Assembly: GCA_014240165.1 (NCBI GenBank)
Contig: JAAZXM010000003.1
Span: forward strand, 26,347-90,346
Source of the DNA: Myxococcales bacterium
GTDB taxonomy: Bacteria > Myxococcota_A > UBA9160 > UBA4427
DNA: 64,000 nt
Reading direction: 5' to 3'
Part shown: piece by piece, positions 22,897-38,893 of the stretch
Layout: each line of letters begins with the position of its first letter
Numbering within the stretch: position 1 is the stretch's first letter
Notes under the pieces: model-generated
Database searches by the model: none
What the model was told of the DNA's origin: nothing
The model's input: the letters and a program-made list of their open reading frames with translations, nothing else
Made by a program: the position numbers and the translations under genes

Positions 22897-24321
22897 TCAG
22901 GCGGTCAGGATGCTCCACCAATGGCCTCCGTTTCGGGCGACATAGGTTCCCAGGAAGATGAGCAGGAAGAGCGTGATGGCCCCCATGGCCCCGATCCAGA
23001 TTCGTCCGCGGGTGCCTTGGGGCATGTCTGCTCCGAGGTAGGCGCGGCTTCGCTGTAGGAGGATGAAGCCCGCGTAGGCGCCGGGTAGGAAGAGGCCGCA
23101 GATCACGTTGGTGGGGACCGCAACCCAGATGGCGATCTCGCTCCAATAAACGCAGCCCAAGACCCCGGGGATGGGAAGCAGGGTGGCCAGCCGGTAGCGC
23201 GTGCCGCCGAATTTCCAGCCGAAGATTTCGGCGCAGACGAAGCCGCAGGTGAGCATTTGAAGCGTGATGGAACTGAGCGCCATGCCCAGAATCCCCAGGC
23301 CGAAGATCATTCGACCCGGGGCGACGCCCACCACCGCCGCCAGGGAGCGCGCCGCCTCCACCGGGGAAAGGCGCGTCCCATCGTAGGCCGGATCCAGATG
23401 CAGGGTGTTGGCGGTGGCGATCACGATCAGGCTGGTGGCGAGCACGTAGGGGAGCAGCATGCCCAGGCCGAGATCGAAACGCGCCATGCGTCGATGCTCG
23501 CGCCCCCAACCCCGGGCCAGCAGGCTGTAGGGATAGAGAAAAACCATATTGATCCCCACCGCGGCGGAGATCCCGCTGAGTACCAGGGTCATGGCCACGA
23601 CTCCGTTGCGGTCCGCAGGGATCTCGAAGCTGAAAAAGCCGCGCAGAAGATCGCCCCAATTCGAGACTCCCGTTTCCAGCACAACGGCGCCGAAGCAGAG
23701 CACGATGCCCCAGACCATATATTTCAAGACGCGCTCATAGAGCCGCAGAAGAAGAGGCGAGCGGCCATAGAGATTGGAAAGCAAAAGGGCCAGGGCCAGG
23801 ACGAAGGATCCGGTGGCCAGGGGGGAAAGCGACCAACCGGCCACGTCCGCCATGTCGACGAGTACCGCCGAGGCGAGGGCGTATTGCGGAAATTGCCAAA
23901 CCAGGGACGCGGCCAGGGCCCCCAATGCCCAACTCCAGGCGAAGAAGGGGCCCGCGTGCTGCCGCATGGCGGGCCAGGGCCGCTGACCGGTGGAGAGGGT
24001 TTGGTGCGCGATGGCGGAAAGCATGACCAGACCCAGGACCATGCCGAGAGGGGCGACCCAGAGCAGCGAGTAGCCGAAGACTGCACCGGCGAAGAGCGCC
24101 GCCGAGGCGGTGCCTCCACCCAGGGTCATGGCGCTCTGGAGATAACCCGGGCCCAAGAGGCCGAGGTAGCGCCGGGTGCGCGGCCAATAGCCGGCGCTTT
24201 CGAGTAACTCGAGTTCCTCGCATTCTTCGCGCAGGGCTTCGGGGTTGGGCGGGTGTGCCATTCGCAGGCCGACTTGAAGCGCGTCCAATTCGGCATCGCC
24301 TATTTTTTCGCCGGGTTTCAT
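22897..24321 (-). CDS. NRAMP-fold (APC superfamily) transporter
   Basis: ATG at 24321 overlaps the upstream stop. GPGYLQSAMTLGGGT...GAVFGYSLLW, AVGINMVFLYPY and about 11 TM segments. Confidence 0.8.
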   Translation of the reverse strand: MKPGEKIGDAELDALQVGLRMAHPPNPEALREECEELELLESAGYWPRTRRYLGLLGPGYLQSAMTLGGGTASAALFAGAVFGYSLLWVAPLGMVLGLVMLSAIAHQTLSTGQRPWPAMRQHAGPFFAWSWALGALAASLVWQFPQYALASAVLVDMADVAGWSLSPLATGSFVLALALLLSNLYGRSPLLLRLYERVLKYMVWGIVLCFGAVVLETGVSNWGDLLRGFFSFEIPADRNGVVAMTLVLSGISAAVGINMVFLYPYSLLARGWGREHRRMARFDLGLGMLLPYVLATSLIVIATANTLHLDPAYDGTRLSPVEAARSLAAVVGVAPGRMIFGLGILGMALSSITLQMLTCGFVCAEIFGWKFGGTRYRLATLLPIPGVLGCVYWSEIAIWVAVPTNVICGLFLPGAYAGFILLQRSRAYLGADMPQGTRGRIWIGAMGAITLFLLIFLGTYVARNGGHWWSILTA

Positions 24322-25748
24322 GAGCCAGGCCGCTCCTGGGCGCCGGGCTCGACCAGCGCGAGGGGGTCGCGTACTTCCAAAGCTACGGGCGATCCGTAGC
24401 CGAAGCCCGGGCTCTTCAGGGATCCCAGGGCCAAGGTTCCCGCCTCGATCCGCAGCCGGATTTCCCCGCTCTCCTCCTGGTAGAGGTCTGGATGGTGCCG
24501 AAGCGCGGCGCGGGCCTCGGCTTCGGGAAGATGGGCGAGGCCGGCGAAATAGTGGTGGCCGTTGCGTTCGGTGTGTTCGAGGCCGAGTGCCGAGAGCAGG
24601 GCCAGGTCCTGCTGGAGGGCGAGCACGGGAAGATTCGTCAGATCCTCGGATGCCTGAAAGGCGCCGCCGCCCCTGGCTTCGCAGAGGGCGCGGTTGAGGA
24701 GCGCTCGAAATACCCCCTTGCAGTTCTTGACCGAGACGCCCTGGTAACCGAGGTCCAGTGCGCGGGGAAAGGCTTGGGTGTTCGCGTCGGCCTCGTCGAT
24801 GAGGATTGGGGCCCAAGCAGAGAGAGCCGGAAGTTCGCGCACCTTGTCGGGATCCAGGCTCGAATGCCGGGGCAGGGGCTGCTCGATGTAGAGGAGGCCT
24901 TCGAGGAGGGTGCGTCCGTCCGGATCCGCTTCGAGATCATTCATCAGGCCCACGAGTTGAGCGAGGTCCTCGATCTGCTCGTTGCCGTCCAGGGTGAATC
25001 GCGGCGCAGGGACTTCGGCCTCCTGCACGACCCGGGCGATTTCGCAGAGTCGGGCGCGGTCGGCCTCGGTCTCACCCGAGATTTTGAGTTTGAAGCAGTT
25101 CAGCCCATAGGCCCGAATATCCTCGTCCAGGGATACGGGAAGGCCGTCTTTGGGGTCGAGTGCCTCTGTCACGGTGCTTCGGCGAAGTGGGTCTGCGAGG
25201 CCGACCGTATGGCGAAGGGTGACCCGCTCCAGGGGGTCGCCCAGGCAATCCGCCAATTCGAAGCCCGCCAATTCGGGGTGGAGTTGCCCGGGTTCGAACC
25301 CGAAGAGATTGCCCCTGAGCGCATCGAAGAAGCTGACCTCGGCGCTGCGGCAAGCGGCGTCCATGAGCGCGCGCTCGAGGAGCGCCACGCCGAACCCGTT
25401 GACCAACTCGACGCCCGGGTGCTCCACCACCGCGCGCTGGTGGGCCCGGTGCCAGAGTTGAAAGAGGCTTCCGTGTCCCGCCGCGCGGTAGGCCGAAGCG
25501 GCGCGCCCGATGGAGGCAACGAGTTCGTCCTGGTCTTGATCAGCCGACGTCGCCGGGTTCTTGTCGAACCATTTCGGGACCAGGAGGTCCGAGGCGTAGC
25601 CCGGGATCCGCTGCCCGTCCTCGAATTCCACCTCCACCCGGGCCACCACCAGGTCGGCGCGGCGCAGCGTGGTGATCCCGAAGCGGAAGGGCAGGCGGGT
25701 ACGGCATGGGGTCGACCCGCATTGGACGGCGATGACTCGGCCCTCCAC
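24318..25748 (-). CDS. Enolase superfamily (mandelate racemase/MLE-like) enzyme of unknown substrate
   Basis: GTG after GGAGG. FKLK (KxK), LDGNE, IEQP and IDEAD metal ligands, SVKNCKG and ERNGHHY motifs. Confidence 0.8.
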   Translation of the reverse strand: MEGRVIAVQCGSTPCRTRLPFRFGITTLRRADLVVARVEVEFEDGQRIPGYASDLLVPKWFDKNPATSADQDQDELVASIGRAASAYRAAGHGSLFQLWHRAHQRAVVEHPGVELVNGFGVALLERALMDAACRSAEVSFFDALRGNLFGFEPGQLHPELAGFELADCLGDPLERVTLRHTVGLADPLRRSTVTEALDPKDGLPVSLDEDIRAYGLNCFKLKISGETEADRARLCEIARVVQEAEVPAPRFTLDGNEQIEDLAQLVGLMNDLEADPDGRTLLEGLLYIEQPLPRHSSLDPDKVRELPALSAWAPILIDEADANTQAFPRALDLGYQGVSVKNCKGVFRALLNRALCEARGGGAFQASEDLTNLPVLALQQDLALLSALGLEHTERNGHHYFAGLAHLPEAEARAALRHHPDLYQEESGEIRLRIEAGTLALGSLKSPGFGYGSPVALEVRDPLALVEPGAQERPGS

Positions 25749-25858: not shown

Positions 25859-26548
25859 TTGGCCCAGCCCCAACCCAAGACTGCGCGGCGCGTTCGCCGC
25901 GACGCCGAGCATAGCCGGGCGGAGATCCTCAAGGCGGCGGTCGAGGTTTTCGCCGAGTTCGGATTGGCGGGGGCTCGGGTGGACGAGATTGCTGCCCGGG
26001 CGGGGGTCAACAAGGCGCTTCTTTATCACTATTACCCCGGCAAGGAAGGGCTCTTCGCCGCGGCGCTGGAATCGGTCTACGCCGATATCCGCCTGGCGGA
26101 GTCCGGTCTCGACCTGGAATCCATGTCCCCTGAGCGCGCGATCACTCGACTCGTTGACTTCACGCTGGATCATTTTCTCGCGCATCCGGAATTTCTGGCC
26201 CTGGTGAGCAGCGAGAACCGCCATGGGGCGCGGCACCTTCGCGAGTCCGAGCACCTTCGCGAGATGCATTTGCCGCTGGTGGTTCGCATCGAGGCCCTGC
26301 TCGGGCGCGGGGTTGCGGCGGGGGTCTTTCGCGATGGCGTCGATCCGCTCGAACTCTATATCTCCATCGCAGCGCTGGGTTATTTCTATCTCTCCAATGT
26401 GCACACCTTGTCCGCGGTTTTCTCGCGGGACCTGATGGCCCCTGCCGCGCTGCGCGCACGGCGTGAGCACATGCGCCAAGTGGTGCTGGGCTACCTGCGC
26501 CCGTTGCCCAAAGGGGAGGCGGACGCGATGGAGGGTGAGCAGCGATGA
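25859..26548 (+). CDS. TetR family transcriptional regulator (NicS/RutR-like C-terminal domain)
   Basis: TTG after GGAGGA (alternative ATG at 25820). HTH ILKAAVEVFAEFGLAGARVDEIAARAGVNKALLYHYY, and LYISIAALGYFYLSNVHTLS. Confidence 0.92.
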   Translation: MAQPQPKTARRVRRDAEHSRAEILKAAVEVFAEFGLAGARVDEIAARAGVNKALLYHYYPGKEGLFAAALESVYADIRLAESGLDLESMSPERAITRLVDFTLDHFLAHPEFLALVSSENRHGARHLRESEHLREMHLPLVVRIEALLGRGVAAGVFRDGVDPLELYISIAALGYFYLSNVHTLSAVFSRDLMAPAALRARREHMRQVVLGYLRPLPKGEADAMEGEQR

Positions 26549-30155: not shown

Positions 30156-33092
30156 CTAGAGGCGGTGGAAGATGAAGTCGTTGCTGAAGAGGCCGCCGGG
30201 ATTCTGAACTTGGAGAAAGTGGATGCCCAGGGCTTCGGGGGGCGTCTCCAATTCGATTCGGATTCTCGCGTCGTTGCAAGTCGGGAGATCGCCGCTCACG
30301 CAGGTCACGTTCCCCTGCACCCTGCGGCCGTCGACGATCAGATGGGCCCCCGCCTGGATATGTCTTCCATTGACAGTCATGACCGACGCGCCCGACAAAA
30401 GGCGCGGGAATTGTTGTCGGCCGGACTGTTCCTGGATCGTGGAGCGGGTCCAGAGGGCGGGTTGTGGATGGTTGACATCGGTATTCACGCCCAGTCGCCC
30501 AGTCAGGGTGCCGACAAACCCCCCGCTTTCCGCAAGGGAGAGCAACTCGGCGCGGGTATGTGATTGCGGATTCTCGCCTCCTTCTATGTAGGCTCCCGCG
30601 CCGACCGTAGGATCGAATTCAAGGGCCACGTGGCGTGAACCCGCGCTATCGATGAATACACCCGTGCCCTGCAAAACGATGGCTTCCTCACTGGCTGATA
30701 ATTCCAAGGCATCGAGGAGGTCGGAGGTTTGGGCCAGGGCGATGGACTGCTCATTCAGGCTGACGCTGCGAGCGAAGGAACCCGAGAACCCGGTGCTTCC
30801 TTCGGTGACCATATTCCAGACCGGGTCGAAGCGAGGTCGGAAGCCCCATGAGAGCCGCCACACCGCCTGCTCGGGACTACCCACCGCTGAGATAGCCCGG
30901 TAGAAGCTGAAGTCGATGATGTTGAGGCGTCCTTGGGGAAGGATGAGCCAGCGATCGTAGGCGCCTCGCCAAGTGGGTGCGTCCATCCCGGTCCCGAACG
31001 TATTCGTACTGACAAGGAAGGGCATTCGATGGCAATCGCCGCAGACGTTGGGCTGGGGGTTTCCCTGCAGGTCGCCATCGATATGAAAGAGCCTGAAACC
31101 AGCCTGCGCAACATCGGACAACACGTTGTTGTAGGGGCGCCTTTGCGATGGGGGGTAGGGCACGCTCAGCAGGAATGTGGCCATTGCATCGCGTTCGGCA
31201 GCGCTCAAGGCACCTGCCTTGCCTTCATCGTTGCCCGGGCAATTGGCCACCATGCACATCGTTGATGCGAGAGAGCCGTCTACCAAGAAGCGCGTGCAAC
31301 TATCGGGATCATCGAGTTCGCAGTTCGGTGCTTCGATTCCGAAGATGTTCGAGGTATTCCTTCCTCCATAGGGGTCACCCGGAATCCCGTCCCAGTGGTA
31401 GGGGGTGGTATCTCGAAGGCCGCGGATCGGCATGGTGACGCGCGGCGGGATCTGGTTGCAGCCCGGAAGGTCGCAGATCGGCGTATCCAGGACCCAGAGC
31501 AGTTGGTCCGTGCCTCCATCCGGGTGGCAACTCTCGCAAGAGAACGTGCCGGTGGTCGAGGCACGGGCATCATTGAAGGCAATTCGTCCCGCTTTGACTA
31601 CGGGATCAGTGGGGTCTTCCAGGGGAATTGTCTCCAGGACCTCGGGTAGGAGAGGATCGGATAAATCCACCAGGGCGACACTGTTGTCTCCGACGCTCAA
31701 GACCCAGGCTCGGGTGGCTATGCCTTGGGGATCCGATTCGAGTGCGATCCCGCGCGGTACCGCGCCGACTTGTGTGCGCCCGAGGACCTGACCGCTCTCC
31801 GCTCCCAGCGTGAAGACACTATTCGAACCCGCTGCGCTGACGAGTAGCAGCGAGTCATCACCGCTGATTTGGATCGCGAACGGGGTTGCGAGTGCCAACT
31901 CGGGGTCGGGCTCCGCCGGGGGCAGCGGCTCGAGGTCGATGATTTCCGGCAGGCCGCATGCGGCGCTGCAATCGACTTGGGTAATCCCGTTGAGGAAGGC
32001 CCGATTATCCATTTCGCCCAAGCCGTCGGCCTCTGATCCGGCAAGTCCGTTGGCGTCATTTCTCGCATCGGTTTGGGTGACGTAGACCTGCCCAGTGGAG
32101 TCGACAGCCAGGCCGTAGAGCAGGGTTCCCATAGTATCGACGACATCCAATAATTCGTCTGTCGCCGTGTCGAAAACAAAGAGGTCCCGATCGGGAACCA
32201 GTGGGTGCTTGATGATATCCACGACTGCGCCCCTCGAGAGGACGTTGTTGCTGGTGATCGAGTGGGCCCTGGCGTCGAAAGTGCACAGGCCGTCCCCCAT
32301 GGTTCCGGCCAGCGAAGCTCCGACGCAGGTCGGGTCGCTCGCATCCATGCAGCAGCCGGAAAGCTGGGTCTGGTTATTGGATTCGAACGGGATTACGTAG
32401 AGTCGGCCGTCCCGAACCTTGATTGCGCGTGGATCCTGCGCGGGAATCTCCAAATTGTGGGTCACTTGGCGGGTTGCGGTATCGACAACCGCGATCTGGT
32501 TTTCCGAGGAGAGGGCGATATAGGCTTTTTCATCGCTGGCGAAGGCGATGCCCATGGGCTCGTCGAAGCGGGTTGATTTGGTGGCCGGGTCGAGATCCTG
32601 GATGGTGGCGACGACCTGGCGGTAGGTAGGGCTTTCCGGGTCGTTGTCGATCACGCTCACCGAGTCTGAGACGTGGTTGGAAGCCCAAACCTCCAGACCA
32701 TCCGGCCTCACTGCGAGACTTACAGGGTCTATGCCGACCTCGATCCGGGCCTCGACTCTTCGGCTAGCCACTCCGATGACATCGACCGTATCCGCCGGAG
32801 TATTGACGACGAAGACTTCTTCTCCTGCAACGGCGATCGGTGACGCGTGCGGGCTCATGAAATTCGGATGACCGACGGCGCTGACAGCGGCAGGCGGAGG
32901 AGTGGGTGGTTCCTGTGTGGCGGACTGGTCCCCCGCTTGCTCGCAGGCGGCCAGCGCGAGCACGACGCAGGAAATCGTGATTCGCAGGGCCGGAATCCAG
33001 CGCCATGAAGCCGCAGGGTCGAGCGGTTTGCGGTTATTCGCTTTCCGAGAAGTCGCGCGCGGTAAGAGCCAATGAAAAACCGATGAACCCAT
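30156..33092 (-). CDS. Lipoprotein with YncE/YVTN beta-propeller and di-heme cytochrome c (peroxidase/MauG-like) domain
   Basis: Lipobox LAAC. Propeller repeats VNTPADTVDVI, VGIDPVSLAV...SNHVSDSVSVI and VGAVPRGIAL. GRIAFND...CESCH and GFRLF...CGDCH heme sites. Start uncertain. Confidence 0.85.
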   Translation of the reverse strand: MGSSVFHWLLPRATSRKANNRKPLDPAASWRWIPALRITISCVVLALAACEQAGDQSATQEPPTPPPAAVSAVGHPNFMSPHASPIAVAGEEVFVVNTPADTVDVIGVASRRVEARIEVGIDPVSLAVRPDGLEVWASNHVSDSVSVIDNDPESPTYRQVVATIQDLDPATKSTRFDEPMGIAFASDEKAYIALSSENQIAVVDTATRQVTHNLEIPAQDPRAIKVRDGRLYVIPFESNNQTQLSGCCMDASDPTCVGASLAGTMGDGLCTFDARAHSITSNNVLSRGAVVDIIKHPLVPDRDLFVFDTATDELLDVVDTMGTLLYGLAVDSTGQVYVTQTDARNDANGLAGSEADGLGEMDNRAFLNGITQVDCSAACGLPEIIDLEPLPPAEPDPELALATPFAIQISGDDSLLLVSAAGSNSVFTLGAESGQVLGRTQVGAVPRGIALESDPQGIATRAWVLSVGDNSVALVDLSDPLLPEVLETIPLEDPTDPVVKAGRIAFNDARASTTGTFSCESCHPDGGTDQLLWVLDTPICDLPGCNQIPPRVTMPIRGLRDTTPYHWDGIPGDPYGGRNTSNIFGIEAPNCELDDPDSCTRFLVDGSLASTMCMVANCPGNDEGKAGALSAAERDAMATFLLSVPYPPSQRRPYNNVLSDVAQAGFRLFHIDGDLQGNPQPNVCGDCHRMPFLVSTNTFGTGMDAPTWRGAYDRWLILPQGRLNIIDFSFYRAISAVGSPEQAVWRLSWGFRPRFDPVWNMVTEGSTGFSGSFARSVSLNEQSIALAQTSDLLDALELSASEEAIVLQGTGVFIDSAGSRHVALEFDPTVGAGAYIEGGENPQSHTRAELLSLAESGGFVGTLTGRLGVNTDVNHPQPALWTRSTIQEQSGRQQFPRLLSGASVMTVNGRHIQAGAHLIVDGRRVQGNVTCVSGDLPTCNDARIRIELETPPEALGIHFLQVQNPGGLFSNDFIFHRL

Positions 33093-33640
33093 GGAGACGG
33101 CTGCCTTTATTCGGACTTGACGCGCGAGTCTAGCCAGATCCCGACTTCTCCGGAGCAATCGGTTCCCTTACGCGAGCTACGGCGCTTAGAGACCCGGTCG
33201 ACCCGCAGAACTTTAGGGTCGGCCCCATGCCGCCGTCGAAAGCCAAGTTGAAGCTTCCGATTCCGCGAAGCGCTCCAGTCGGTAGAGCATCAGTGCGGAT
33301 CCCCTACGACTCAAGATCTCGATTGCTCAAGTGATGCTTCGTGGGGGCTGGGAGGCCAGCAATATTTCATCGGAACGTGTGTTCTGAGTTGCGTGAGGGA
33401 CGCGATGAATTCAGTCGGAATTGCACTCTTGGCTACGGGAAAGACCTGAGGTTTATCTGCAGGAAACCCTTCGCGTGCTGATGGTTCATTCAATCAAGCG
33501 CTCCCAATCAAAATTGTTGGTCCAAGCCAGGAAGTTTCCCGGACTTCTTAATCATGTTCGGGAGATTCAAACGTTGGTTGCTCGCTGCCTTCTCCTAGTT
33601 GCATTTGTTCACGGAATTTTGAATCGGGAGTACGCATACC

Positions 33641-36600
33641 ATGACTACTACTGTTGCTCGCTTAGCCTCCTCAATCGGAATGAATTCCTCGAGAAATATC
33701 GTCGCCTTGGTTGGAGCCCTCGCGATGTCCTTGGTCATCGGTCCATTCGCTGCGCAAGCCGATGGGGATAAGAAGAAATCACGATCACCTTTTCCCCCCG
33801 CTGGCGATCCCTCCGCCTATACGGGCCCGTCGATTGCGGATGTGCCCGACGGCCTGCCCCATGCCAATGAAGGGGCCTTTGAAGGGGCCGGCGTACTCGG
33901 CAAAGACGCTTTGACGGAAAAAAATTCAGTATCGGAAGCTGAGCTCATCGAGGACCGGAAATTTGACGTTCCGACGGGCATGGCTCCGAGTCCACTATTT
34001 GGCGCTGCGCCCTTCAGTCAGCAGATGCTTCGCTTTGAAGAATTTGGAGTGAAAAAACTTCGATTGAAGAAAAAGCTGAAGAAGAACAAACAGCCGAAGA
34101 ATTGGGCCCCCTTGCCCGCACCGGCGAACGCACAGGCGATTCCCGATGGCGGCGCGCTCGATTCATTCCTGCGCCAATCGATCTGGCCCTTGCCCAGTGA
34201 ATTCGCGAATGAGCAGGACTCGAATCCCTGGCAGGCCCAGATCGAGGCCTGGCTCGGGCGATCCTTGGATAGTCCCCCGGCTGAAGGTCGACCGCCGGGA
34301 CAGGGCTGGGCGCATCAGCGCTGGAAAGAGTTCAAGCCCAAGGTCTATTACCAGACCGCGACCGCGGGAGCTCGGGTCAACGGCGGGCTGCGCGATCCCT
34401 TTCAGGATCATGGCTATGCCAATGGCGAGTTCGCTGCTGATGGCCTCTACTACAATACGTTGGGCGAAGAGGGTTTCGACGGGACCACTGCGGGCATTCC
34501 GGTTCGATTTCATCCCGCCATGCCGGAGCAGCAGTCGAGCACTGTTTGGACTTTTGACGGAACGTTCCCGCCCAAATTGCTCAAGGTGCGATACGGCCAG
34601 CCTGTGTTGATGCGGCAATACAACGCACTCCCCATCGATGTCGCCGAGAACGCGGGCTTTGGAATTCACACGCTGACTACCCATGAGCATAATGGCCACA
34701 ACCCGGCGGAGAGTGATGGCTATACCAATGCTTTCTTCTTTCCCGGTCAGTTCTACGACTATCGCTGGCCCATCGCCCTGGCTGGTCACGATTCGATCAA
34801 CAAAAAAGCAAAGGATTGGCGGGCGGGTCGGCCGGATGGCAAAGGCGGTATCAAGAGGATTCCTGGCGATTGGCGCGAAACCATGAGCACGCATTGGTAC
34901 CACGATCACATGCTCGACTATACGGCGCAAAATGTATACAAGGGCAACGCAGCGATGATGAACTACTACAGCGCGCTTGATCGCGGCAACGAGGGAATCA
35001 ATGATGGCGTGAATTTGCGGCTGCCGAGCGGAACAGCCTTGGATTGGGGCAACCGCGATTACGATGTGAATCTTCTGTTGGCCGAAAAGGCGTGGGATGC
35101 GTCCGGGCAACTGGCATTCAATCCCTTCAACCAGAAGGGGTTCATCGGCGACGCCATGACGGTGAATTGGCTCTATAAGCCCTATTTCGAGGTTCGGGCC
35201 CGGCGTTATCGATTCCGGCTTCTGAATGCTTCGGTTTCTCGCTACTTCAAGGTGGCCTTGGTCAATGAAGTTGGCGCACCCGTGCCCTTCTACATGGTCG
35301 CGAACGATGGAAATATCATGGAGCACACGGTGTATTTCGAAAATGGCGAACTGCCGACACTGGGAATCGCCGAACGCTACGACATCGTGATCGACTTCAG
35401 CGAATTCGAGCCCGGTTCCAAGCTCTACCTGGTGAATATGCTGCAACATAAGAATGGGCAAGTGACGGATGTGCCCATTCCCCTGGCGGATATCGCCAGT
35501 GGCGCCTACGCAGCCGAAGCTCAGGACATCGACTTCGATGGCGTTGCGGACGAGTGGGTCGATGGTGACCCAGTGGTTGGCCGCTTCCTCGAATTCCAAG
35601 TCCAGGAATACGCCGAGGTGGATCAGAGTATGGATCCTGCGCTCTACGTCGCTGGTGGGGAAAAAATGATTCCCCTGAATCGGCCGACGGAGGAGGAGCT
35701 GGCCGGCGCGTTGCATCGAACTTTTGAGTTCGAAAAAGAACAAACCGACGAGACTCCTTGGGTCATCGAGACAGATGGCGGCAAGGGGTATACGGCCGAC
35801 CCTCGAAGACTCGCTGCTGCGCCCGAAAAGAATTCGGGCGGCCTGGAAGTGTGGCGGCTCGTCAACAGTGGGACCTGGAGTCACCCGATCCATATCCACT
35901 TCGAAGAGGGAATCATCCTCAGGCGAAACGGAAAGCCGCCGCCGGAATGGGAGAAATGGGCGCGAAAGGACGTCTACCGGCTGGGGCCGCAGGAAGACAG
36001 CGGCGTCATGGTGGAAATCGCTTTTCGTTTCCGAGAATTTGCCGGGACATATATGGAGCATTGTCATAATACCCAGCACGAAGATCACGCGATGCTCTTG
36101 CGCTGGGATATCGAGCACCCCGGCCAGGTGGAGTTGATGCCGGTTCCCTTCCCGTCATGGGATGGCGTGAGCTATGTGGATACCCACGCTCTTCCCACTT
36201 TCCGCACGGGTGATGCAGTCGGCGAGTACGGGCCCGAAATGGATCCGGTTTCGCTCTGGGTCGAGGGCGCGACAATGGGGCAACTCGACGATATCCGCGA
36301 TATGCCGTTGGGCGATGCGTTGGATGAGCAACCCAATGAGCGTGGAACAATCACCTTCCCGCTGACGCTGGGGACGAATGACGATGACGGCGTGCTGACC
36401 GACGTGTGGTTTTTCTTGCACGATATCAGTGACGAAGCCCTGGCTGATGAAATGGGCCTGGCCTGGGGAGGTGCGCTTGTCGGTACTCCGGATGCGGCCA
36501 CCTCGACTGCGAGTATCGATCCCATCACGGGGCATTGGACCTTCTATGGAGATCTGCCCAATCCGGTGCATGCGGGAGATACCAACCCGGTTGGCATTCC

Positions 36601-37480
36601 TGATATTTTGAATGGCTGCGATCCCGGGAGCACTGATCCGTGCAATGACTACTCGCCGCTTCGCCGCATGGTGATCGACGGAAAAGAAGTCATCGTGAAT
36701 GCGATCATGGTCAAGTGGGGCGGCGAACCCTGGGAACAACTCCGCGTAGACCAGAGCTGTGTCAGTTTCCCCGAAACCCCTTGGAGTGATCCCAAGACCT
36801 GCGCCTATGTGGGTGCGGGTTGGGGCGAACTGAATGCTTCGGGCCAGGTTCTGGAATTGGAGACGGCGGTTCTGAATCCCTACGTGACTTTCAAATTGCA
36901 TAAATCATGGGCGGGAGAAGCCGATTATTTGCCTTATTACATCGTGCTGGACACGTTTGCGAGCAATTACGACGCTGGGCTCGACGAATGGGTCCCGAAT
37001 CATGGGCCTGCGAAAGCGATGGGCATTCCCTTTGTGCCCAAGCATGAGCATCTGGGGTCGGCAGGTGCGCCGCTGGTTCAGTTCATACCTCCCGTCTCGC
37101 TCTATCCGGGCAAGACTCCCGCCAATCCTCTGGGATACGGGCTGCAGGGCGGTGGTCCGCTCGGGGGTCAGGTGGGTGTGCCGGCCTATTTCATGCCTGA
37201 AGATGACTACAGCCCCATGTGGCATATCGGCTTCGCTCGCTGGCTTGAGCCGGCAACGGAAGTCGTGAAGGGATTCGAGCGGCTGAAGGAACTGCGTGCC
37301 GAAGGCAGGCTCGAGATCGTCGAATTCCCGCCGCCTCCGCAATTTGGGAGTGACAATTTCGATTTCGATCACCAGAACTCGGAGGGCAACGCGCGGCATA
37401 TCGTCAACTGTCCCACGACGATGACCATCGACGCTGCCATCCATGAGGCTCGCCAGGTCGACCAGCCGCCCCTTCCGTAG
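33641..37480 (+). CDS. Large secreted multicopper oxidase (McoA/MofA-like) with C-terminal extension
   Basis: Signal peptide ending AQA. All four Cu motifs are present: THEHNGH, HWYHDH, HPIHIH and HCHNTQHEDHAM. About 420 extra aa follow. Confidence 0.92.
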   Translation: MTTTVARLASSIGMNSSRNIVALVGALAMSLVIGPFAAQADGDKKKSRSPFPPAGDPSAYTGPSIADVPDGLPHANEGAFEGAGVLGKDALTEKNSVSEAELIEDRKFDVPTGMAPSPLFGAAPFSQQMLRFEEFGVKKLRLKKKLKKNKQPKNWAPLPAPANAQAIPDGGALDSFLRQSIWPLPSEFANEQDSNPWQAQIEAWLGRSLDSPPAEGRPPGQGWAHQRWKEFKPKVYYQTATAGARVNGGLRDPFQDHGYANGEFAADGLYYNTLGEEGFDGTTAGIPVRFHPAMPEQQSSTVWTFDGTFPPKLLKVRYGQPVLMRQYNALPIDVAENAGFGIHTLTTHEHNGHNPAESDGYTNAFFFPGQFYDYRWPIALAGHDSINKKAKDWRAGRPDGKGGIKRIPGDWRETMSTHWYHDHMLDYTAQNVYKGNAAMMNYYSALDRGNEGINDGVNLRLPSGTALDWGNRDYDVNLLLAEKAWDASGQLAFNPFNQKGFIGDAMTVNWLYKPYFEVRARRYRFRLLNASVSRYFKVALVNEVGAPVPFYMVANDGNIMEHTVYFENGELPTLGIAERYDIVIDFSEFEPGSKLYLVNMLQHKNGQVTDVPIPLADIASGAYAAEAQDIDFDGVADEWVDGDPVVGRFLEFQVQEYAEVDQSMDPALYVAGGEKMIPLNRPTEEELAGALHRTFEFEKEQTDETPWVIETDGGKGYTADPRRLAAAPEKNSGGLEVWRLVNSGTWSHPIHIHFEEGIILRRNGKPPPEWEKWARKDVYRLGPQEDSGVMVEIAFRFREFAGTYMEHCHNTQHEDHAMLLRWDIEHPGQVELMPVPFPSWDGVSYVDTHALPTFRTGDAVGEYGPEMDPVSLWVEGATMGQLDDIRDMPLGDALDEQPNERGTITFPLTLGTNDDDGVLTDVWFFLHDISDEALADEMGLAWGGALVGTPDAATSTASIDPITGHWTFYGDLPNPVHAGDTNPVGIPDILNGCDPGSTDPCNDYSPLRRMVIDGKEVIVNAIMVKWGGEPWEQLRVDQSCVSFPETPWSDPKTCAYVGAGWGELNASGQVLELETAVLNPYVTFKLHKSWAGEADYLPYYIVLDTFASNYDAGLDEWVPNHGPAKAMGIPFVPKHEHLGSAGAPLVQFIPPVSLYPGKTPANPLGYGLQGGGPLGGQVGVPAYFMPEDDYSPMWHIGFARWLEPATEVVKGFERLKELRAEGRLEIVEFPPPPQFGSDNFDFDHQNSEGNARHIVNCPTTMTIDAAIHEARQVDQPPLP

Positions 37481-37537
37481 GGGCGGCTGGGTCGGCAACG
37501 CCCGCATGCCATCTCGGCACTCAAAGAGGAATGACCC

Positions 37538-38893
37538 ATGACTGGTGAAATGAAAATCCGAGCTTCGTTGTTTTCGAAAAGTCTGGCCGCATGTGGAATC
37601 GTGCTCAGTCTCATCCTGGGTGCGATCTCCACCGAGGCCTCGAAATGGGGCGGCGAGTATTTCCCCAATATTCCCCTGGTGACCGAAGAAGGGGAAGAGG
37701 TGCGTTTCTTCGATGATCTGATCGAGGGGAAAGTAGTCGCCATCAACTTCATCTATACGACCTGCCCCGATACGTGTCCTCTCGAGACAGCTCAACTTCT
37801 GAAGGTTGAGAAGATTCTAGGTGAGCGAATGGGGCAGGACGTCTTCTTTTATTCCATTACAATCGATCCGGAAACCGATACCCCGGCCGTGATGAAGGAA
37901 TACAAAGAACGGTTCGGTGCAAGTTGGACGTTCCTGAGCGGCGATAAGGAAGACATCGTTCTCCTGCGGCGGAAACTCGGCCTCTATATCGACGAGATCC
38001 AGGATGGTTCCAAGAACCACAACGTGAACATGATCATCGGGAATCAGGGGACAGGTCGCTGGATGCGCCGCTCCCCCATGGAGAATCCCTATGTGCTGGC
38101 CGACCAATTGGGGAATTGGCTGACGGGTTGGAAGGCTCCTCAGCCAGAGGAAAGTTATGCTTCTGCTCCGAAGCTCCGGAATATTTCCACGGGGGAGCAG
38201 CTCTTCAGGACGCGCTGCGCGACCTGCCATAGCGTAAATGGCAGCGACGGCAGCAATGCCCTTGGGCCGGATCTACTGGGGGTGAACGATCGCCGGGATA
38301 AGGGCTGGCTCCTCAGCTGGCTCCAGGCTCCCGATCGAATGCTCGAAGCGGGGGATCCCATCGCGACTCAGCTCTACGAGGAATATGGCCGAGTCGCCAT
38401 GCCGAATATGCGACTGAATCGCGAGGAAGCCGAAGCCCTGTTGGATTATTTGGGAACCGAGACGACTCGATTGGAGAAAGCTGCGATCCGGGAGCAGTTC
38501 CTCTCGAGGCGTCGAAATCGGCCAGCTGGAGATGTGGTTGCTGTGATGAATGCCTGGGTTCGCGAGGCCGACGGGGCGGCTCGGATGAACGCCGGGTACA
38601 TGACGTTGGTCAACGCGGGCTCCAAGGATGTCCGCCTCGTCAAGGTTGAAAGCAAGGCATTCGACTACGTCGAGGTGCATGAGATGGCGCAGATCGACGG
38701 CCTGATGGAAATGCGGGAGATCGATCGCCTCGTGATCCCCGCCAAGGCTCAGGCAGAACTCGCTCCGGGCGGAAAGCATCTGATGATGTCGGGGCCGCGG
38801 GAACCGCTCGAGGCGGGGCAGCGGGTAGACCTTGTGCTGACCTTCGACTCGGGGATGAAGCAGACAGTGTCGGTTCGGGTCGCGGCCATGTAG
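37538..38893 (+). CDS. SCO1/SenC - cytochrome c - PCuAC copper chaperone triple fusion
   Basis: Signal peptide. SCO CPDTC and ITIDPETD. Heme CATCH with MPNM. PCuAC AWVR...AGYM...EVHEM...MEM...GGKHLMM. Confidence 0.92.
   Translation: MTGEMKIRASLFSKSLAACGIVLSLILGAISTEASKWGGEYFPNIPLVTEEGEEVRFFDDLIEGKVVAINFIYTTCPDTCPLETAQLLKVEKILGERMGQDVFFYSITIDPETDTPAVMKEYKERFGASWTFLSGDKEDIVLLRRKLGLYIDEIQDGSKNHNVNMIIGNQGTGRWMRRSPMENPYVLADQLGNWLTGWKAPQPEESYASAPKLRNISTGEQLFRTRCATCHSVNGSDGSNALGPDLLGVNDRRDKGWLLSWLQAPDRMLEAGDPIATQLYEEYGRVAMPNMRLNREEAEALLDYLGTETTRLEKAAIREQFLSRRRNRPAGDVVAVMNAWVREADGAARMNAGYMTLVNAGSKDVRLVKVESKAFDYVEVHEMAQIDGLMEMREIDRLVIPAKAQAELAPGGKHLMMSGPREPLEAGQRVDLVLTFDSGMKQTVSVRVAAM

Follow-up and report, generated by a model that had tools for sequence, protein, structure and literature searches.

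A conserved multicopper oxidase and SCO-cytochrome c gene pair beside a probably independent di-heme lipoprotein gene in a Myxococcales bacterium

Background

Pairs of a large multicopper oxidase (MCO) gene and an SCO gene mark the loci of the Mn(II) and iodide oxidases known from bacteria. According to the accessible text of two studies, mcoA and the SCO1/SenC gene downstream of it form a conserved core, the sole part of the mcoA operon conserved across pseudomonads (PMC13689576, PMC11409713). In the accessible part of the first of these, McoA is given a length of 1,131 residues and MnxG a length of 1,944 residues (PMC13689576). The mnxG operon of Pseudomonas putida GB-1 is listed, in the sections available, as encoding an MCO, a YVTN beta-propeller protein, two SCO1/SenC proteins, a protein with a cytochrome c domain, and SurA (PMC11409713), and the propeller of this operon is called a lactonase-family protein in the available portion of another source (PMC8218464). 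The iodide oxidase cluster, as far as the available text describes it, consists of IoxA and three SCO1 homologues, with flanking gsp genes (PMC9415286). The present work concerns a locus with an MCO and an SCO gene in the genome of a Myxococcales bacterium (GenBank assembly GCA_014240165.1). The stretch analyzed, referred to here as the window, has 64,000 nucleotides and covers positions 26,347 to 90,346 of the forward strand of contig JAAZXM010000003.1. At window positions 30,156 to 38,893, a gene for a di-heme propeller lipoprotein on the minus strand lies divergent to an MCO gene and a gene for an SCO-cytochrome c-PCuAC fusion on the plus strand.

A sequence-only reading of this DNA had proposed that the three genes form one self-contained extracytoplasmic oxidation system. 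The comparisons reported here point to a different explanation, to which a probability of about 70% can be given, namely that the stretch consists of two distinct transcription units that are adjacent by coincidence: an MCO-SCO operon and a stand-alone di-heme gene.

Results

The MCO gene of the window and the SCO-cytochrome c-PCuAC gene behind it constitute a real, conserved, and widespread two-gene module. The MCO gene occupies 33641..37480 (plus strand, 1279 residues), and the fusion gene (37538..38893, plus strand, 451 residues) starts 57 bp past the MCO stop. A total of 44 other MCO loci were compared with this pair: 20 from the same class or phylum, 3 from further relatives, 2 from the window's own genome, 5 from plasmids or chromids, and 14 more, 7 of them loci of gammaproteobacterial genomes and 7 loci of same-genus genomes. 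An SCO relative adjoins the MCO in 39 of these loci. As for the other five, the contig ends at the MCO in four, and the fifth contains a distant oxidase with 31% identity. The window's genome carries four pairs of a large MCO gene with an SCO-cytochrome c gene behind it, on contigs C90 (the contig of the window), C96 (two in tandem), and C122; two MCOs of approximately 730 residues are also encoded. Among the loci examined, the fused PCuAC domain was found only in the closest relatives, the same-genus genomes G001 and G006, whose orthologous MCO-SCO-PCuAC pairs show 77% and 69-70% identity, and the DUF7482 extension of the MCO was found in these two genomes and in G866, where the contig ends at the MCO. 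The conservation of the MCO and SCO-cytochrome c pair supports one part of the sequence-only reading, in which an exported MCO was thought to have a dedicated partner for copper loading and electron relay.

The di-heme gene does not accompany this module in other genomes. Relatives of the di-heme protein are encoded at 576 places in one-genome-per-species contigs, and the best 80 of these places belong mostly to Planctomycetota, Verrucomicrobiota, Acidobacteriota (Vicinamibacterales), and Poribacteria, together with a few Gammaproteobacteria. Beside the di-heme family, no relative of the MCO or of the SCO fusion was detected (tblastn, E<=1e-5) in any of 80 genome loci or 80 metagenome loci, and 109 of these 160 loci have at least 1.5 kb of flank on the upstream side, where the MCO would lie. 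No relative of the window's di-heme family was present at any of the 44 other MCO loci either. Among 40 relatives of the window's genome, the MCO occurs in 9, the di-heme gene in 12, and both in none. All six same-genus genomes contain the MCO, and none of the six contains the di-heme gene (E<=1e-20; completeness 80-94%). The orthologous MCO-SCO-PCuAC pairs in the two same-genus genomes have no di-heme gene within approximately 10 kb where the contig allows, and no MCO match at E<=1e-10 was obtained in the four genomes of Gammaproteobacteria whose di-heme relatives are the closest (63-66% identity). No neighbour of the di-heme gene recurs at more than 14 of the 80 genome loci, and the recurring ones are the PSCyt/DUF1501 pairs usual in Planctomycetota.

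Since no linkage was found at 160 di-heme loci and 44 MCO loci, and no relative carries both genes, the di-heme gene and the MCO are not linked in other genomes; this is the outcome that the sequence-only reading had itself named as speaking against it, and its claim that the di-heme gene belongs to a self-contained system is therefore not supported. The di-heme lipoprotein would work without the MCO in nearly all genomes that carry it. Most likely, the di-heme gene is an independent neighbour of the oxidase operon, and we infer that it is independent in function as well.

A looser superfamily of propeller proteins, with 900-1060 residues and two CxxCH motifs, shows approximately 25% identity to the window protein. 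Two of its genes lie in the window's own genome, on C76 and C121. Of 11 full-length loci of this superfamily, one (L224, C76-type) is followed directly by a small MCO gene. When plasmids were searched with the di-heme protein, only propeller repeats were returned, in 5 records, and look-ups in a protein-cluster atlas gave propeller/lactonase clusters with CCP_MauG or Cytochrom_C, which serve as leads only.

All four copper motifs are present in the window's MCO: HEH at residues 348-350 (34682-34690), HWYHDH at 418-423 (34892-34909), HPIHIH at 748-753 (35882-35899), and HCHNTQHEDHAM at 807-818 (36059-36094), all on the plus strand. They correspond to the motifs of three-domain-type MCOs (HxH, HxH, HxxHxH, and HCHxxxHxxxxM). 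None of the 12 positions that bind copper varies in any of 121 MCO sequences, which marks these proteins as working oxidases. Two cupredoxin models score over threshold (Cu-oxidase_2, 47 bits vs 20.4; Cu-oxidase_3, 23.4 vs 21), and the C-terminal extension contains DUF7482 at residues 1010-1206 (36668..37258, plus strand; Pfam PF24298, E 2.6e-11). The best 120 homologues in a large protein collection (61-98% identity) all carry PF07731 and PF24298. By sequence, the closest relatives with solved structures are bilirubin oxidases (E 4.5e-36) and CotA. The N-terminus, read by eye, is of Sec type, ends in AQA, and is without a twin arginine. If translation began instead at the ATG of Met14 (33680), the signal peptide, of Sec type, would have 27 residues. 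Additionally, a 1251-residue member of the MCO 90% cluster, on a contig of the same size as the window's contig, implies a start at Met29 (window 33641-33724). A start at Met29 would remove the signal peptide, so that Met1 or Met14 fits an exported MCO better.

The second protein of the module has a hydrophobic N-terminal membrane anchor (by eye), followed by an SCO1/SenC domain (37676-38020; PF02630, E 1.6e-22), a cytochrome c domain (38180-38458; CATCH at 227), and a PCuAC domain (38543-38869; PF04314, E 7.4e-34), all on the plus strand. The SCO1/SenC domain is thioredoxin-like and has the CxxxC motif (CPDTC at 76). The copper site of PCuAC proteins is described by H-x10-M-x21-H-x-M; in the fusion, it is found as H381-x10-M392-x21-H414-x-M416, within a region matching the family model. 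Among the best 120 homologues of the fusion (61-96%), PF04314 and PF02630 are present in 120 of 120, and a cytochrome c family in 119. Twelve contig sizes are common to the best-120 lists of the MCO and the SCO fusion.

The di-heme protein can be described, from its sequence and predicted structure, as a lipoprotein of a very conserved, uncharacterised family in which a YVTN propeller is combined with a di-heme domain of CCP/MauG fold and an Ig-like domain. In 22 sequences from several phyla, identity to the window protein is 60-93%, with hundreds of invariant columns. The gene is placed at 30156..33092 (minus strand, 978 residues) when read from the ATG at 33092, and its open frame extends to a TTG at 33158 (1000 residues). 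The ATG at 33092 is the likely start, because a 978-residue member of the di-heme 90% cluster lies on a contig of 154,682 bp, which is the same size as C90. All parts of the protein are encoded on the minus strand. The N-terminal signal region (32943..33092) has a lipobox-like LAAC (...VVLALAAC) in the translation read by eye, with Cys72 of the 1000-residue frame. The YVTN-type propeller (approximately residues 95-515; 31614..32876; TIGR02276, E 5e-17) is followed by the di-heme domain (approximately residues 516-790; 30789..31613), which was recognized by its CxxCH motifs and by VIA-align. The two motifs are CESCH at 541 (31524-31538) and CGDCH at 706 (31029-31043). In the C-terminal region (residues 791-1000; 30159..30788), the last 110 or so residues resemble an IPT/TIG-like beta-sandwich. 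All three proteins of the locus are probably exported, as the sequence-only reading had it, judging by the lipobox-like, Sec-type, and hydrophobic-anchor N-termini seen by eye.

Against solved structures, the propeller matches 1l0q by sequence (E 1.5e-22), and weaker matches of the di-heme protein were obtained with hydrazine synthase beta (5c2v_B, E 1.5e-8) and gamma (5c2v_C, E 0.0011). Pfam CCP_MauG remains sub-threshold (19.4 bits vs a cut-off of 25.6) and covers residues 522-552 only. The AF2 model of the whole protein is confident in the propeller, with pLDDT of approximately 80-95 over most of it, and a Foldseek search with this model returned propeller matches only, among them the archaeal YVTN propeller 1l0q (E 3e-18) and hydrazine synthase beta (5c2v_B, E 3.5e-17, TMt 0.75). 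A second AF2 model was made for residues 500-1000 from a more diverse alignment of 48 rows (mean pLDDT 81). Foldseek with this model gave nothing at E<=0.001. An exhaustive VIA-align search of the same model covered 48,161 solved chains, and its six best matches all belong to the bacterial di-heme peroxidase/MauG superfamily, with Z of 8.2-10.2: hydrazine synthase gamma (5c2v_C, Z 10.2), a protein titled in the PDB as a MauG-like protein of copper homeostasis (6e1c_B, 9.6), BccP (3o5c_A, 9.2), MauG (3l4m_A, 9.0), YhjA (9qdt_A, 9.0), and BthA (6v59_B, 8.2). Thus, two c-type heme motifs are seated in what is predicted to be the two-lobed fold of the CCP/MauG superfamily. The IPT/TIG-like C-terminus is modelled with pLDDT >90 and matches IPT/TIG and Ig-like structures at Z of approximately 6-7.4.

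As for the layout of the locus, the three genes, their coordinates and domains, and the spacer described by the sequence-only reading are all real. With the ATG at 33092 as the di-heme start, the divergent intergenic spacer extends from 33093 to 33640. Its 548 bp have a GC content of 0.538, vs 0.632 in the genome, with a local minimum of 0.495, which agrees with the spacer of approximately 550 bp that had been called relatively AT-rich. No sigma-70-like site was found in the spacer; the region has 2 such sites, both intragenic, vs 3.2 expected. No TGGC-N8-TGC site of sigma-54 type, a motif of the -24/-12 consensus, occurs in 33093-33640. The spacer has no Rfam match at E<=0.1, and its repeats are short and at chance level only. 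A foreign origin of the genes was considered and is not clear: their GC content is 0.575-0.609 vs 0.632, and their GC3 is like that of their neighbours. In the neighbourhood, 25 open reading frames around the three genes were scanned. The flanks belong to unrelated metabolism and include a GNAT protein, a hexapeptide transferase, an Oxidored_FMN-family (NADH:flavin) oxidoreductase, DUF2147, acyl-CoA dehydrogenases, and a molybdopterin oxidoreductase. A gene for an Nramp-family divalent-metal transporter lies at window 22897-24816 (minus strand), approximately 5.3 kb from the di-heme gene.

Several further observations were made at related loci. The three other MCO-SCO pairs of the genome (L190, L191; C96:195-14366, C122:3353-12092) are flanked by genes for small outer-membrane beta-barrels of the OMP_b-brl type, in three occurrences. 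DUF5666 repeats were seen in a sensor kinase encoded close to the two tandem pairs of the genome (L190:17016-19385) and in a protein downstream of a Paraburkholderia MCO-SCO-CCP locus (L196:10620-11840). On a Fuscovulum ytuae plasmid (NZ_CP124537.1; L189:1-8130), the type II secretion genes gspD, gspE, and a PilN/GspM-like gene stand directly upstream of the MCO-SCO pair. On a Limimaricola variabilis plasmid (NZ_CP139694.1; L197:229-10254), a MopA-like animal-heme peroxidase of >1850 residues with RTX repeats is divergent to the MCO-SCO pair, and a two-component system follows. The window's genome has a MopA-like animal-heme peroxidase frame of its own (C109:20869-26950), which exceeds 2027 residues, runs off the contig end, and is 35-44% identical to that of Limimaricola. 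On C116 (6049-16087), a CCP-family di-heme gene of 1083 residues is followed by a frame with 4 heme motifs, with a 10-heme frame and two large frames near; this cluster may be an electron conduit of the porin-cytochrome type. In two related genomes, the MCO has one in-frame TAG between two matching halves (G354:C50:9610-12243 and G382:C462:2486-5116), which may represent a broken or split gene.

Discussion

The two units of the stretch would have separate tasks if they are indeed independent. The plus-strand unit would provide an MCO with a complete type 1 and trinuclear copper site and large added regions and, from its second gene, an anchored SCO fusion. The apo-oxidase would be exported by the Sec route and cross the membrane unfolded. 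PCuAC would capture Cu(I) and pass it on to the SCO domain at its CxxxC site, and the fused cytochrome c may ensure that this site, or the copper, has the proper redox state. Metallated in this way outside the cytoplasm, the MCO would oxidise an extracytoplasmic one-electron substrate and reduce O2 to water. The di-heme lipoprotein would most likely be a peroxide- or small-oxidant-dependent heme enzyme with a substrate of its own.

Because of the analogy with McoA and the SCO1/SenC gene downstream of it, Mn(II) can be put forward as a tentative best guess for the substrate of the MCO, with iodide, Fe(II), and phenolics as alternatives. Some flavour of Mn oxidation is also given by the MopA-like peroxidase beside the Limimaricola pair, the MopA-like frame on C109, and the type II secretion genes beside the Fuscovulum pair, the last of which resemble the reported Mn and iodide oxidase loci. 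That the module is real and acts on something other than Mn(II), such as iodide as in IoxA, Fe(II), or a phenolic or tetrapyrrole compound as in bilirubin oxidase and CotA, is possible and somewhat doubtful. The position of bilirubin oxidases and CotA as the closest solved relatives and the marine habitat favour it, and so does the iodide oxidase cluster, which in the available text likewise joins an MCO to SCO1 homologues with secretion genes near (PMC9415286). Nothing direct speaks against such a substrate; the 1279 residues of the MCO are nearer to the 1,131 of McoA than to the roughly 62 kDa of IoxA, and MopA-like peroxidases co-occur.

A number of findings weigh against regarding the two units as mere neighbours. 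The MCO and di-heme 90% clusters both have members on contigs of 154,682 and 97,865 bp, and three marine metagenome studies contain DNA nearly identical to both genes. The common second contig and the three studies therefore indicate that the juxtaposition is stable at the population level. A different di-heme family (Pfam CCP_MauG over threshold, weakly RoxA-like) adjoins related MCO-SCO pairs in 5 of the 44 loci, and in one case the CCP partner and the MCO are fused into one open frame of approximately 1670-1700 residues (L212:3100-8103, G501:C110). In three whole genomes checked, the CCP partner copy is the only full-length strong match, which makes chance adjacency very unlikely. Furthermore, the window's MCO clade lies inside a supported 10-row clade (95) with two CCP-partnered oxidases. 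The CCP family, the fusion, and the tree clade together suggest that a heme partner is a recurrent theme of the oxidase family, for which the window's di-heme protein could be a lineage-specific stand-in. On the side of the oxidase, the McoA locus has reported sigma-54 sites, none like which were seen in the window spacer, and kinship to the characterised Mn or iodide oxidases is suggested by architecture and gene order only.

The CCP partners are hosted by a Comamonadaceae plasmid, a Paraburkholderia chromid, two genomes of the window's phylum, and one gammaproteobacterium. These proteins are mutually 38-44% identical by tblastn and 41-52% identical in alignment A2. In the fused frame, Cu-oxidase_2 is found at residues 862-952 and CCP_MauG at 1195-1290. 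CCP-partnered oxidases fall in three places of the MCO tree, which was made by a quick method and midpoint-rooted for drawing only, and the label needs at least 3 changes. A DHOR-type di-heme gene and a weak CCP gene were located near two further MCO-SCO pairs. It can be seen that the combination of an oxidase, a copper-loading protein, and a heme enzyme is a real theme in other genomes. What links the window's own di-heme gene to the oxidase is its position alone. In a limited full-text search of the literature, which is not proof of absence, no description of an MCO-SCO-CCP arrangement was found.

From this theme it could be supposed that the three genes cooperate in the window's lineage, the di-heme lipoprotein having been recruited as the heme partner of the oxidase in place of a CCP/MauG-type protein. 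In such a role, it might remove peroxide that would re-reduce the product, or it might modify or activate the oxidase as MauG and MbnH do. This recruitment is unlikely. Besides the CCP partners, their fusion, and their single strong copies, it is favoured by the DHOR and weak CCP genes near two pairs, by the animal-heme peroxidase divergent to another, and by the absence of a CCP-family neighbour in the window's MCO subclade. The predicted heme domain, moreover, has the MauG/MbnH/CCP fold, with a MauG-like protein of copper homeostasis by title (6e1c) among its matches; one C76-type propeller di-heme gene is directly followed by a small MCO; and the published mnxG operon, as described in the accessible text, includes a beta-propeller protein (PMC11409713, PMC8218464). 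Against it stand the nil linkage across genomes (0/160 and 0/44), the same-genus orthologues of the operon without a di-heme gene, and the lack of this gene in all six same-genus genomes. The profile of the window's di-heme family matches that of the CCP partner family with an hhalign probability of 18.6% over 35 columns, limited to the first heme motif, and BLASTP gave E 0.002 over 77 residues, so that profile homology does not extend over the whole heme domain. In addition, the genome's own, more divergent CCP-family gene sits elsewhere, on C116. The juxtaposition itself is kept only among near-identical populations. In three marine DNA runs, short contig pieces cover both genes and the spacer, with no listed piece spanning the whole junction, and one vent metatranscriptome contained only fragments of relatives at 90-99%, giving no evidence of expression.

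A broader form of this idea is quite improbable: the oxidase family would stand at the centre of an extracytoplasmic system of three components that is so far undescribed, made up of an MCO, an SCO-cytochrome c protein with or without PCuAC, and a di-heme maturing or protecting enzyme of CCP/MauG type, the last of which would have been replaced in the window's lineage by a propeller lipoprotein resembling hydrazine synthase beta-gamma. For this system, the natural MCO-CCP fusion would then count as proof that oxidase and CCP protein are partners. If it were true, it would give the first functional handle on the di-heme family, which has hundreds of copies across Planctomycetota, Verrucomicrobiota, Acidobacteriota, and Poribacteria. 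The last explanation, already named as an alternative by the sequence-only reading, is that the MCO is an ordinary cuprous oxidase of the CueO/CopA type that detoxifies copper in the periplasm, and it fits poorly and is very unlikely: CueO is the best NCBIfam match (E 1.3e-25) and CueO structures match at E of approximately 1e-13, but the score of 90.2 bits is far from the equivalog cut-off of 525, any 40-residue segment has at most 4 Met where the hallmark of CueO is a methionine-rich segment over the type 1 site, no twin arginine was seen by eye, the 25 neighbouring reading frames scanned include no cop/cus genes, the genome has four large paralogous pairs, and the MCO has approximately 700 extra residues including DUF7482.

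Of the system first proposed from the sequence, the MCO-SCO module holds and is very unlikely to be of the CueO kind, and the di-heme gene as a conserved partner does not hold. The comparisons show that the three-gene divergon is not a conserved unit, which saves effort on a false lead. Two better targets are available: the recurrent and once-fused partnership of oxidase and CCP/MauG-type protein, and the strongly conserved family of propeller di-heme lipoproteins. The subfamily with DUF7482 and an SCO-cytochrome c-PCuAC partner is abundant in marine metagenomes and uncharacterised, and represents a candidate for unassigned marine metal or halide oxidation.

Compared to known systems, the di-heme lipoprotein shares its domain order with the fused beta-gamma form of hydrazine synthase (NCBIfam NF052342 match). 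It differs in that the family models stay below their cut-offs (51 vs 560, 38 vs 1250, and 18 vs 625), in that an IPT/TIG-like C-terminus and a lipoprotein signal are added, which are also unlike CCP, and in that its family is spread over non-anammox phyla; no gene resembling the alpha subunit was found among the neighbouring reading frames scanned. Distant beta-gamma-like homologues of hydrazine synthase have been reported outside anammox bacteria, according to the accessible part of one study (PMC12758564).

In P. putida GB-1, the mnxG operon, as listed in the available text, has the same kinds of parts as the window, namely an MCO, a beta-propeller, an SCO protein, and a cytochrome c. Unlike the window genes, its genes are all co-directional in one operon, MnxG has 1,944 residues, and the two propellers can be compared by description only. 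No MCO frame of >1183 residues was found in 401 genomes of the class of a Xanthomonadaceae metagenome-assembled genome, where an mnxG-like operon was sought. Three genomes marked as unpublished (G847, G590, G692) contribute to tallies only and carry none of the claims made here. The claim that the three-part arrangement is without characterised precedent is weakened by this operon, since the accessible part of its description already lists an MCO, a propeller, an SCO protein, and a cytochrome c (PMC11409713). The ioxABCDEF loci of Iodidimonas and Roseovarius also encode an extracellular MCO together with homologues of SCO1/SenC, and, like the Fuscovulum plasmid, have secretion genes close by. 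They differ in that IoxA, of approximately 62 kDa, works with IoxC, and in that three separate SCO genes are described in the text available, with no fusion to PCuAC or cytochrome c reported there; none of the 25 window reading frames scanned is a type II secretion or gsp gene, and IoxC was not searched for. The McoA locus is similar in having an MCO of >1100 residues, with four copper motifs and an SCO1/SenC gene directly downstream, as in the window. It is dissimilar in that the window's SCO protein is fused to cytochrome c and PCuAC, the window's MCO carries DUF7482, and no mnxS or mnxR is present among the window reading frames scanned. By analogy with these systems, the oxidase operon of the window can be regarded as a new and still uncharacterised example of a locus type already known, that of the bacterial oxidases resembling those for Mn and iodide.

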